A stretch of DNA of 19,497 nucleotides from a virus (lineage: Duplodnaviria > Heunggongvirae > Uroviricota > Caudoviricetes). Location of the stretch: IMG/VR virus record IMGVR_UViG_2600254985_000001; one strand, 5' to 3'. The position numbers were made by a program, and so were the translations under genes. Positions 9,923 to 12,455 of the stretch are shown here, piece by piece. The notes under the pieces were generated by a model. The model was not told where the DNA came from. It did not search any database and saw nothing but the letters and a program-made list of their open reading frames with translations. Each line of letters begins with the position of its first letter. The stretch's first letter is position 1.

Positions 9923-10029
9923 TTTTTATTTTCCTTTTTATTTTTTTATGCAGTACGTTTCCAATAATATATTGTCGTTGAACCAATTACTGCTGAACCG
10001 ATATTTTCCCATGCAATCCTAAATATATA

Positions 10030-12399
10030 TTAATCAATATCAATATTCCACATGCAAACAGGATATATTAAATCTTGTAACTGTGACATAATTTGAGCCA
10101 TTGAGTATTTGTTAGGGTGTATCGATCCATAAGTAACGCCATCTGAATTTAAAGCTGACCATGTTTTTATAGACATATCATTATGTGCGTAAGTTCTCGC
10201 TGTAAAATCAGCAAACGCACACTCGTATTTACGACATAATTCTTGTATTATAGGTCTAACATTTTGAAACCACTCTACATAGGTTCTCCCAGTATTATAA
10301 ACTGTTCCAACTGTTGGCAAAGTGATGATAATAGCCAAATCTTTTACGGTTTTATTATAAGCTGGTCTACCATTAACACTTGTATTTCCTCTTATTCTTT
10401 TCAATCCTTCTTCCATATTTGTTTTAAATAAGTTTAATCTTTGTTCTAGTGTTAACCCAGCGAACTTCGTATGGTTTTTATCAGCGTCATTCATTCCCCA
10501 TCCAATTATTAAAAGGTCTGGGTTATGTTCCATCGATGTTTGTAAAAAACCATTAGGGTATTTTTGTAAATAGTAAGGCAAAGCATAAGTTGGGTTTCCT
10601 ACCCATTCATTCGTATTTCTACCACCAAAACCATTGTTTAGTATTGATAATTTTTTTAAATCATAATTCCCTGCCTTCATTATTTTTTTAAGTGCATAAT
10701 CTTTCATGCCAAAAAAAGTATCTTGAACCGATGATAGTGGAGCGTAACCAGCAGTTATACTATCTCCGTCTAATGCTATTGATATATTATTTACACCGTC
10801 ATAAATTTTCTCATACCAATGCTCTAAATATTCATGTCCCCAAATAGGTGTAACTGGATATTTGTAATAATCAAACGCAGTAGTAGTTGTTGTAACAGTG
10901 TCATTACTTACTGACGGGGTATAATTTACCATTTTTTGAAAACTATCTAAATTACTCGGTACGTTGTTAGTGGATGAAGTGTAATTTAAAACTTGCATGT
11001 CTGCTAATATCATGTCAATATCAGATTGTGTAAGAGGTTTTAATCTAACATACCCTTGAATAGCATATATTCCATTTGCGTTTATATTTTTTTCGTTTGT
11101 AACAGTAACACTCTCACATTTCAAAGTATTGCTATTAAATTTAACTAATTCTAATCTTAAATATTTTGAGTTAGTATATTTTAAAATAGAACCCTTATTT
11201 AATGTCATTTTTTGAGTTGAAAAGTATGTCTTGTTAATATCTTTTGAAGCACTACCAACACTATATTTTCCATATGTTACAGTCAAGTCAATATCAACTA
11301 ACATTCTATCTTTGAGAAATTTTAATTCATCTTCAATAATGTCTATTTTGTCTGTAGTTGAAATATATGATGTAAAAATAAAATTTGATTTTGTCGTTGC
11401 AACATCTTCTCCCATTTTTCCAAAACCAGTTTTGGCAGTTTGAAAAGCAATTTTGCCAATATGCTTTATACTCATTCCATTTTTTACTTCGCCATAGCGT
11501 AAAAAAGCACCATTTTTATCATATAAAAAATATTTATAAAGTGTATAATTAGTTGGATTTTTAATATTTAATTCAACAGTACCGCTAATATCAAACTTTA
11601 CAGTTCTATTCATAGACTCATTAATAACTGTTTCGCCATTATTATCATTATATTTACCAACTTCCCAAGCAACATTTAAAGTTGTTGGTGTTAAACTGTT
11701 CGCTTGTGCTTCGGTAGCCTTTGCCATTGCATTTTTGGCTTCACTTTCAGCTTGTTTTGCTGTTTCTTGAGCAGTTGTTACATTTTGATTTGTGATTAAT
11801 AAATCTGATTGTTCAGCTTTTGTTGAAATTGCAATCCCTTGCCTGCTGACATCAGCTTGTAAGTTGTTCAAGTCTGTTTGATTGGCTTTAAGCTCAATAT
11901 TGCTCTTGTTTGATTCAGTTTGAGCATGTAAGTCATTCAACTCACTACGCATTACTTGTGGCATATTTTCCAATAATAATTTTGTAAAATCATCAATCTT
12001 ATTATTTACTTCTTGAGCTAAATCTGTAACCGTAGAATTATCTGATATAAACGTAAGGTTCTTGCTGACGATAACCTGCTCTTTATCTTCATTGAGAAGT
12101 ATTAAGTTCGCTTCAATAACTCCAGTTTCTGTCATTTCGGTAGGAATTACTAAAATAAACTCTCCCTTAGTTAAGTTTTCAGGAGGAATCATAACAAAAC
12201 CTGAATTACTGCTATTAGTATATTGATATGTAAGTTTTAATGAATGGCCAGTCAAATCAATTTCGCCTCCATTATCAAGTATTTTAATTGACAATGTTCT
12301 AGCGTTGACGTCGCCTTGCATTATTTGAATTGGTTGTGGGAAGCCTTTATTGACCGTATCCCATACAATCGCTCTATTTTTAAAATTATCTAAACTCAT
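10030..12399 (-). CDS. large accessory virion protein (789 aa): N-terminal domain, coiled-coil stalk, central beta-rich region, C-terminal SGNH/GDSL hydrolase domain; candidate neck passage structure (collar-whisker) protein
   Basis: Lies between the head-tail joining genes and mtp. Residues about 140..240 are heptad-like and Ala/Gln/Glu-rich. The C-terminal region has SGNH blocks: ALDGDSITAGY (Ser547 codon at 10759..10761), NNGFGG, GWGMNDA, and DGVTYGSIHP. Confidence 0.7.
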   Translation of the reverse strand: MSLDNFKNRAIVWDTVNKGFPQPIQIMQGDVNARTLSIKILDNGGEIDLTGHSLKLTYQYTNSSNSGFVMIPPENLTKGEFILVIPTEMTETGVIEANLILLNEDKEQVIVSKNLTFISDNSTVTDLAQEVNNKIDDFTKLLLENMPQVMRSELNDLHAQTESNKSNIELKANQTDLNNLQADVSRQGIAISTKAEQSDLLITNQNVTTAQETAKQAESEAKNAMAKATEAQANSLTPTTLNVAWEVGKYNDNNGETVINESMNRTVKFDISGTVELNIKNPTNYTLYKYFLYDKNGAFLRYGEVKNGMSIKHIGKIAFQTAKTGFGKMGEDVATTKSNFIFTSYISTTDKIDIIEDELKFLKDRMLVDIDLTVTYGKYSVGSASKDINKTYFSTQKMTLNKGSILKYTNSKYLRLELVKFNSNTLKCESVTVTNEKNINANGIYAIQGYVRLKPLTQSDIDMILADMQVLNYTSSTNNVPSNLDSFQKMVNYTPSVSNDTVTTTTTAFDYYKYPVTPIWGHEYLEHWYEKIYDGVNNISIALDGDSITAGYAPLSSVQDTFFGMKDYALKKIMKAGNYDLKKLSILNNGFGGRNTNEWVGNPTYALPYYLQKYPNGFLQTSMEHNPDLLIIGWGMNDADKNHTKFAGLTLEQRLNLFKTNMEEGLKRIRGNTSVNGRPAYNKTVKDLAIIITLPTVGTVYNTGRTYVEWFQNVRPIIQELCRKYECAFADFTARTYAHNDMSIKTWSALNSDGVTYGSIHPNKYSMAQIMSQLQDLIYPVCMWNIDID

Positions 12400-12455
12400 T
12401 AAAAAATACCATTATTGTTAATTTCAATCAAATGTAATTAAACCACTTTCTACTT

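Follow-up and report, generated by a model that had tools for sequence, protein, structure and literature searches.

A Neck Passage Structure Protein with a Predicted SGNH/GDSL Esterase-Like Tip in a Skunavirus of Lactococcus

Introduction

When phages spoil a dairy fermentation, Skunaviruses (936-group phages) are mostly responsible, and the optional neck passage structures (NPS) of these phages are still assigned an unknown or ancillary role. In 2019, Hayes et al. divided the NPS from 113 phages into groups A to G, and those of groups F (Phi114) and G (ASCC191), found in 18 of the 113 phages, gave HHpred matches to the carbohydrate esterase 2waa (PMC6669499). The neck location has been demonstrated by immunogold electron microscopy for the NPS of the phage Phi15 (PMC4759559). 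The present work concerns the IMG/VR virus record IMGVR_UViG_2600254985_000001, a stretch of 19,497 nucleotides that is referred to below as the window, and its gene nps at 10030..12399 on the minus strand, the product of which is assigned by homology as the NPS of a Skunavirus infecting Lactococcus and carries an SGNH/GDSL hydrolase domain at the C-terminus. The NPS with an esterase-like tip is, accordingly, a class already reported in 2019, and the window protein is a different version of this known design. The first-pass annotation of the DNA, in which the SGNH domains were taken not to be a described feature of the neck proteins, is contradicted in this respect by the groups F and G, by the GDSL motifs of the ASCC191 and Phi15 proteins, and by the RefSeq name of the window protein itself, "SGNH/GDSL hydrolase family protein" (WP_052080622.1, an exact match, which is named "Neck passage structure" in UniRef).

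The SGNH/GDSL Domain and Its Catalytic Residues

The SGNH/GDSL domain occupies residues 513-789 (10033..10863, on the minus strand as all the features of the gene given below), including a family-specific N-terminal helix with the motif KYPxxPxWGHEYLxxWY. The Pfam family Lipase_GDSL_2 was matched by residues 545-764 with an E-value of 6.1e-11 and 43.6 bits (gathering cutoff 32.9), and Lipase_GDSL with an E-value of 5.2e-6. The searches of the PDB sequences, both with the single sequence and with the profile, gave nothing significant, and the similarity to the solved enzymes came from the fold comparison. The AlphaFold2 (AF2) model of residues 503-789, with a predicted local distance difference test (pLDDT) of 78.6 and a predicted template modelling score (pTM) of 0.83, has the three-layer α/β/α architecture of the SGNH fold, and was aligned by Foldseek with solved SGNH esterases at E 1.3e-7, so that the fold suggested in the first-pass annotation was recovered. 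The top structural neighbours comprised GDSL esterases, most of them uncharacterised, and acetylesterases acting on carbohydrates or peptidoglycan. Among the predicted viral structures of BFVD, the best four matches were phage proteins (E of about 3-6e-11), the only named one being the tail spike of the Pectobacterium phage PPWS4, while the tail spikes of PP99 and Possum were found among the lower-ranked matches.

All the motifs that had been quoted at first for the SGNH blocks are present in the protein, in the form of GDSITAG, NNGFGG, GWGMNDA and DGVTYGSIHP, and the putative nucleophile Ser547 of the block I GDS is encoded, exactly where it had been placed, by the AGT codon at 10759..10761. 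Two details of that reading were not retained, as the block II glycine is Gly590 of NNG and not a residue of FGG, and DGVTYGSIHP does not contain the canonical DxxH of block V. The serine was found in 143 of 144 non-gap sequences of the relatives and does not vary in the alignment A2 of 61 sequences. The oxyanion-hole residues, Gly590 of block II (10630..10632) and Asn637 of the block III GxND (10489..10491), are conserved as Gly in 137 of 146 and as Asn in 149 of 150 sequences, respectively, and the general base of block V, His761 (codon CAC, 10117..10119), is His in 152 of 152, being followed by Pro762 in 148 of them. Altogether, G545, D546, S547, G590, G635, N637, D638, H761 and P762 hardly vary among about 150 relatives, the most distant of which have about 20% identity, and the retention of the catalytic residues over such a divergence speaks for selection on catalysis.

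Three residues ahead of the histidine, where the canonical triad aspartate is expected, stands Gly758 (codon GGA, 10126..10128). Only 50 of the 152 family members have Asp there, 34 others having Arg and 17 Gly. In the window protein, Gly758 lies in the clade motif S-[DN]-G-x-x-Y-G-x-I-H-P, which in the window lineage reads S-D-G-x-T-Y/H-G-x-I-H-P, and Asp753 stands eight residues upstream of His761. The Ser-His dyads, in which the histidine is tuned by main-chain carbonyls, have been established for many active CE2 SGNH esterases (PMC9487903), and therefore the loss of the aspartate alone does not imply inactivity. The aspartate does not belong to the four residues from which the SGNH superfamily takes its name. 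Since the block V aspartate is absent while the Ser, Gly, Asn and His are kept, a dyad of this type is likely in the window protein as well.

Relation to the Esterase-Like Tips of Groups F and G

The NPS of ASCC191 matches Lipase_GDSL_2 (E 1.7e-10) and, weakly, CE2_N (E 0.032), and contains the motifs FFGDS, GTND and DGLHP, while the NPS of Phi15, with the Phi114-type tip, contains GDS673, GYND755 and DGVHP834. These proteins share with the window protein the gene slot, the near-identical BppU_N anchor and proximal stalk, and the presence of a GDSL/SGNH tip at the C-terminus. They differ from it in having the canonical DG[LV]HP in block V, whereas the window protein has Gly three residues before the histidine. 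By BLASTP, no alignment of the window protein with that of ASCC191 was obtained beyond residue 200, the distal 550 residues or so being unalignable, and the similarity to that of Phi15 is likewise confined to the N-terminal part. In tblastn searches of 50,697 phage records, the window-type tip was found in 53 records, all of the OP4519xx series and only from a Canadian cheese plant, and the CE2-like tip in 36 records, namely, 30 of Lactococcus, 4 of Leuconostoc and 2 of Streptococcus phages, the two sets being disjoint. The membership of the window tip in CE2 was considered and rejected, because BLASTP showed no homology with a C-terminus of the ASCC191 or Phi114 type and because these sets are disjoint. 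The window protein also gave no match to CE2_N at E <= 1, and the model of the region preceding its SGNH domain is β-rich, with a pLDDT of 45. In the literature searched, no paper was found that ties the NPS to the terms SGNH or GDSL.

An inconsistency was noticed in the published grouping. In Table 1 of Hayes et al., the phages ASCC273, 287, 324, 337, 368, 454, 502, 527, 544, CB13 and CB14 are assigned to the NPS group E, and in Table 3 of the same work the group E is described as "Alginate", with ASCC365 as the lead phage (PMC6669499). The C-termini of these phages are, according to tblastn, 97-99.7% identical to that of ASCC191, the lead phage of the carbohydrate-esterase group G. The labels E and G may thus be swapped between the two tables, and if so, the NPS of the esterase type are commoner than the text of that work implies. 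The CE2-like tip of ASCC191 was also found to be 65% identical to the annotated NPS of the Leuconostoc phages LN25 and Ln-8 (KC013026 / KM262191) and to share 39% identity with a hypothetical protein encoded by prophages of Streptococcus uberis (Javan633, MK448823), which indicates that the esterase-tipped fibres cross genera among the phages of lactic acid bacteria.

Distribution of the Domain and Cassette Exchange

An exhaustive HMMER search with the SGNH domain resulted in 396 cluster representatives, of which 75 had E <= 1e-30. Most of the relatives are proteins of 600-900 amino acids with the domain at the C-terminus, and their N-terminal parts match the tail-fibre PHROGs. Among the 61 relatives that were scanned for domains, GDSL_2 was present in 60, BppU_N in 7 and collagen repeats in 3. 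Two of the relatives share with the window protein a cassette composed of a mid module and the SGNH domain, with 88% identity over 557 aa (P0012) and 75% over 643 aa (P0157), while their BppU_N domain and stalk are different from those of the window protein. P0157 is encoded at 10001-12406 of a contig from the Logan assembly of ERR14838882 (locus L004), directly after Dit and a Tal with lysozyme and M23 domains. This metagenomic contig shares 94% identity with P335, ul36 and proPhi6, all phages of lactococci, and the slot after Dit and Tal is the one in which the P335-group phages encode the baseplate BppU and the receptor-binding proteins (RBP). The contig ends 560 nt downstream of the BppU_N-SGNH gene. 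More distant relatives without BppU_N were found after the Prophage_tail genes in pig-gut contigs or right before an r1t-type holin. The occurrence of the cassette on different BppU_N mounts and in these other settings means that it behaves as a portable host-surface module, of the neck or of the tail tip.

Proposed Function and Alternative Explanations

We consider it fairly probable, from the conserved residues and the gene contexts, that the SGNH tip is a catalytically competent carbohydrate O-acyl (acetyl) esterase, borne on a neck-anchored whisker and acting in the reversible contact with the host. According to the proposed mechanism, the BppU-like N-terminal β-sandwich would assemble a collar at the head-tail junction, perhaps with 18 copies as six trimers by analogy with BppU, and the helical stalk would project the whiskers outward from it, the end of each whisker being a "terminal knot" of two β-rich modules and the SGNH domain. 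Ser547 would serve as the nucleophile and His761 as the base, with Gly590 and Asn637 forming the oxyanion hole, in a Ser-His dyad devoid of the canonical aspartate. The tip would bind and de-O-acylate a glycan of the host cell envelope when the virion first touches the cell side-on and still reversibly, the candidate substrates being the O-acetylated peptidoglycan and the strain-specific acetylated substituents of the cell-wall polysaccharide (CWPS) or exopolysaccharide (EPS). The adsorption may be aided in that the receptor of the RBP is unmasked or searched for, or in that the phage is set free from decoy sites. A role in the host interaction is supported by the cassette on the BppU_N protein encoded after Dit and Tal in the P335-group contig, as well as by the relatives in tail-fibre positions. 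As for the substrates, the peptidoglycan of L. lactis is O-acetylated by OatA, which makes 6-O-acetyl-MurNAc a candidate (PMC9894900), and O-acetylated CWPS has been documented in the related genus Pseudolactococcus.

A more far-reaching version, in which the whiskers are true enzymes, is put forward as a tentative and rather doubtful proposal: each virion would carry eighteen SGNH esterases of the dyad type, which would remove O-acetyl or other O-acyl groups from the lactococcal peptidoglycan, CWPS or EPS on side-on contact and so prepare the surface for the baseplate RBP, in a two-site "prime at neck, bind at tip" manner, with the cassette swappable between the neck (Skunavirus) and the baseplate (P335) by means of alternative BppU_N adaptors.

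Several points weigh against a catalytic role of the tip. The block V aspartate is missing, yet it is kept by the nearer relatives P0003, P0004 and P0006, so that the window lineage could have a weakened activity or none. The Ser-His geometry is putative, and the loops of block I (about 549-562) and block V (about 733-762) belong to the less confidently predicted parts of the model. No esterase activity of an NPS has been reported in the literature searched, which did not include the work of Jolicoeur et al. 2023 on the 53 phages. A review on the rhamnose-containing CWPS mentions O-acetylation for peptidoglycan only. The NPS are non-essential, and the one tested tip with a carbohydrate-binding module bound the host cells weakly (PMC6669499).

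The most serious alternative, which we nevertheless regard as unlikely, follows the general view of the NPS tips and takes the domain as a non-catalytic carbohydrate-binding module, in which the esterase fold and groove are kept in an ancillary adhesin raising avidity. It is in this sense, as binding modules, that the esterase-like tips were interpreted by Hayes et al. (PMC6669499). The replacement of the triad aspartate by Gly758 in the window lineage is in agreement with this explanation, and so is the title of the PDB entry 2w9x, which refers to a CE2 active site with divergent catalytic and non-catalytic binding functions. The non-catalytic ligand of CE2 is said, in the account of Montanier et al. 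of 2009, to be cellulose. However, the near-invariance of the serine, of both oxyanion residues and of the histidine in about 150 highly divergent relatives would be unexpected for mere binding, and two thirds of the family are without the aspartate, so that its absence is not a signature of decay specific to the lineage. Moreover, binding and catalysis are not mutually exclusive.

An improbable alternative is a receptor-destroying or release enzyme, comparable with the haemagglutinin-esterases of influenza C virus and coronaviruses, that strips acyl groups from debris, EPS and infected cells and thereby frees the progeny. The tips at the neck would be far from the tail-tip baseplate bearing the RBP, the tail of the 936-group phages being roughly 130 nm long, the NPS are dispensable and variably present or exchanged, and the fold neighbours are O-acetylesterases, all of which would suit such an enzyme. 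This explanation is opposed by the presence of the cassette at the P335-group baseplate, where a role on the entry side is more natural, and by the SGNH fibres of G7C, PP99 and Possum, which are described as adsorption-associated (PMC9569702). Finally, a lipase or phospholipase, or an O-acyltransferase of the OatA-C or PatB type, is suggested by the Pfam name "GDSL-like lipase/acylhydrolase" and is very improbable, given that the structural neighbours are GDSL esterases and carbohydrate or peptidoglycan acetylesterases, that the named viral matches are tail spikes and fibres, that an extracellular neck domain would presumably be unable to reach the membrane lipid through the thick wall, and that an acyl donor for a transferase would be lacking outside the cell.

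N-Terminal Anchor, Stalk and Mid Modules

The SGNH domain is preceded by four regions. The first of them, the β-sandwich BppU_N of residues 7-147 (11959..12381; Pfam PF10651, E 4.2e-23), is the predicted anchor of the collar or ring. The likeness of the N-terminus to those of the known NPS, which had been proposed for checking, is evident from this match, from the PHROG 2370 "neck passage structure" (E 4e-143 for residues 1-173), and from the identity of the anchor and proximal stalk to those of the ASCC191 NPS (93%, residues 1-200) and the Phi15 NPS (89%, residues 1-186). The PHROG neck-passage families cover residues 1 to about 220 of the window protein and no further.

The second region is a Pro/Gly-poor, helix-favouring stalk of residues 148-235 (11695..11958), recognised by composition and by 23-residue repeats, with KANQTDL at 171 and KAEQSDL at 194. 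Residues 126-235 contain 2% of Pro and Gly and 50% of A/E/K/Q/L. With a crude home-made heptad score, the stalk was not separable from the rest of the protein. A trimeric coiled coil is inferred here from the composition and from the homologous NPS proteins (PMC6669499, PMC9692632).

The two remaining regions are β-rich mid modules. The mid module 1, residues 236-345 (11365..11694), is dispensable, as it is precisely deleted in natural variants of 679 aa, and the mid module 2, residues 367-475 (10975..11301), travels with the SGNH domain. The latter was defined by the alignment to relatives, since it aligns upstream of the SGNH domain in P0005, P0008, P0013 and P0015, and many of the family matches begin at the profile positions 6-30. 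No significant similarity between the two modules was found in an internal-repeat test. The AF2 model of residues 225-521 is β-rich and unreliable (pLDDT 45, pTM 0.32). Among 5.8 billion proteins searched with the mid region (residues 234-523), homologues were found only within the same lineage. The GC content of the mid modules (10864-11694 of the window) is 27.2-27.5%, with 27.5% in the module 1, versus 35.4% in the window and 33-35% in the other parts of nps, which is consistent with a recent acquisition from a different source.

Near-identical phages carry clean in-frame length variants of nps, which encode 812 aa, 679 aa or 782 aa. The proteins of 812 aa have exactly one extra 23-aa repeat unit of the stalk, as an in-frame duplication, and those of 679 aa are without the mid module 1 (about 110 aa). 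These variants surfaced among the matches listed in the profile search with the 61-sequence alignment, which were mostly near-identical sequences. Their presence in near-identical phages suggests that the whisker length and the number of domains evolve within one factory population.

Gene Position and Record Labels

The nps open reading frame begins with ATG and ends with a TAA stop, and its 789 codons agree with the length given in the first-pass annotation, where the gene had also been placed, correctly in view of the neighbouring matches and the NPS homology, in the optional NPS slot between the head-tail joining genes and the major tail protein (MTP) gene. The window corresponds, in reverse complement, to about the first 19.5 kb of a Skunavirus Lactococcus phage and is, over the full length, 98.2-98.4% identical to JG7, AF6, BM12 and other phages of the Canadian cheese plant. 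On the minus strand, nps is preceded by the genes of terminase, portal, protease, capsid, HCP1, HCP2 and the tail terminator, and followed by those of the major tail protein (301 aa), the tape measure protein, Dit, Tal and RBP. The upstream genes match Phage_HCP1, HCP2_Skunalikevirus and Skunalike_TailTerm, and the downstream gene matches L_lac_phage_MSP (MTP). The "neck passage structure" genes of 53 Lactococcus phages have 97-98% DNA identity to nps of the window.

The scans for promoters and terminators around nps remained at chance level. Within about 15 nt upstream of the start codon (…aattaacaataatggtattttttaATG; window 12400-12455), no recognisable Shine-Dalgarno sequence was seen, and the start agrees with those annotated in ASCC191, Phi15 and BM21; the lack of such a sequence could be related to the low copy number of a collar protein.

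The exact 789-aa protein has been deposited under the label "MULTISPECIES ... [Bacteria]". The phage contigs bearing it, of which the longest, at 31.5 kb, amounts to an entire phage genome, occur inside NCBI assemblies (loci L010, L011, L013 and L015), and the labels in the 90% cluster include Staphylococcus, Bacillus thuringiensis, Citrobacter, Comamonas, Leptotrichia and Enterobacter. These odd host labels look like the contamination with Lactococcus phages that recurs across unrelated sequencing projects.

Significance and Comparison with Known Systems

The finding so far is an incremental extension of a published in silico observation. This kind of neck fibre has acquired SGNH modules of at least two unrelated types, one of which appears on a P335-group baseplate protein as well; this suggests that the de-acylation of the cell envelope, beyond the sugar binding, may recur in the adsorption of lactococcal phages. 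If the tip is active, the acetylation patterns of the host would become a determinant of phage sensitivity to be taken into account in the choice of strains for starter rotation.

An enzymatic appendage at the head-tail collar is known in the podovirus phi29, the gp12 of which modifies a polymer of the host wall, degrading teichoic acid, has a β-helix fold and is essential for adsorption. It is collar-attached like the window NPS and has no sequence or fold relation to it. The baseplate proteins of the BppU type and the RBP of the P335-group and Streptococcus thermophilus phages are similar to the window protein in the plan of a BppU_N adaptor, a helical stalk and a distal module for the host interaction, and an RBP with an esterase fold has been described in the phages of the 5093 group. 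These proteins differ in their place of attachment, which is the Dit ring of the tail tip and not the neck, and the L004 protein has a BppU_N domain and a stalk that show no sequence relation to those of the window protein.

The tail-fibre proteins of PP99 and Possum have been reported to deacetylate the O-polysaccharide (PMC9569702). Like these gp66 proteins and gp63.1 of the E. coli phage G7C (PDB 4qnl), to which the window domain is structurally similar, the window protein has its SGNH domain on a fibrous virion protein, and the O-deacetylation of a surface polysaccharide in the course of adsorption is the function proposed for the window tip as well. Weak tblastn matches, with 22% identity, were also obtained in the Pectobacterium phage PPWS2. 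The G7C, PP99 and Possum proteins are, however, tail-tip fibres of podoviruses, which act on the O-antigen of the lipopolysaccharide of Gram-negative hosts and have about 10-25% identity, whereas the window protein is BppU_N-anchored and assigned to the neck of a siphovirus of a Gram-positive host. As judged from the sequences compared, what is new in the window tip relative to the described NPS is that it represents another SGNH subfamily, one that lacks the block V aspartate, is joined to lineage-restricted mid modules, and takes part in the cassette exchange with a P335-group protein.

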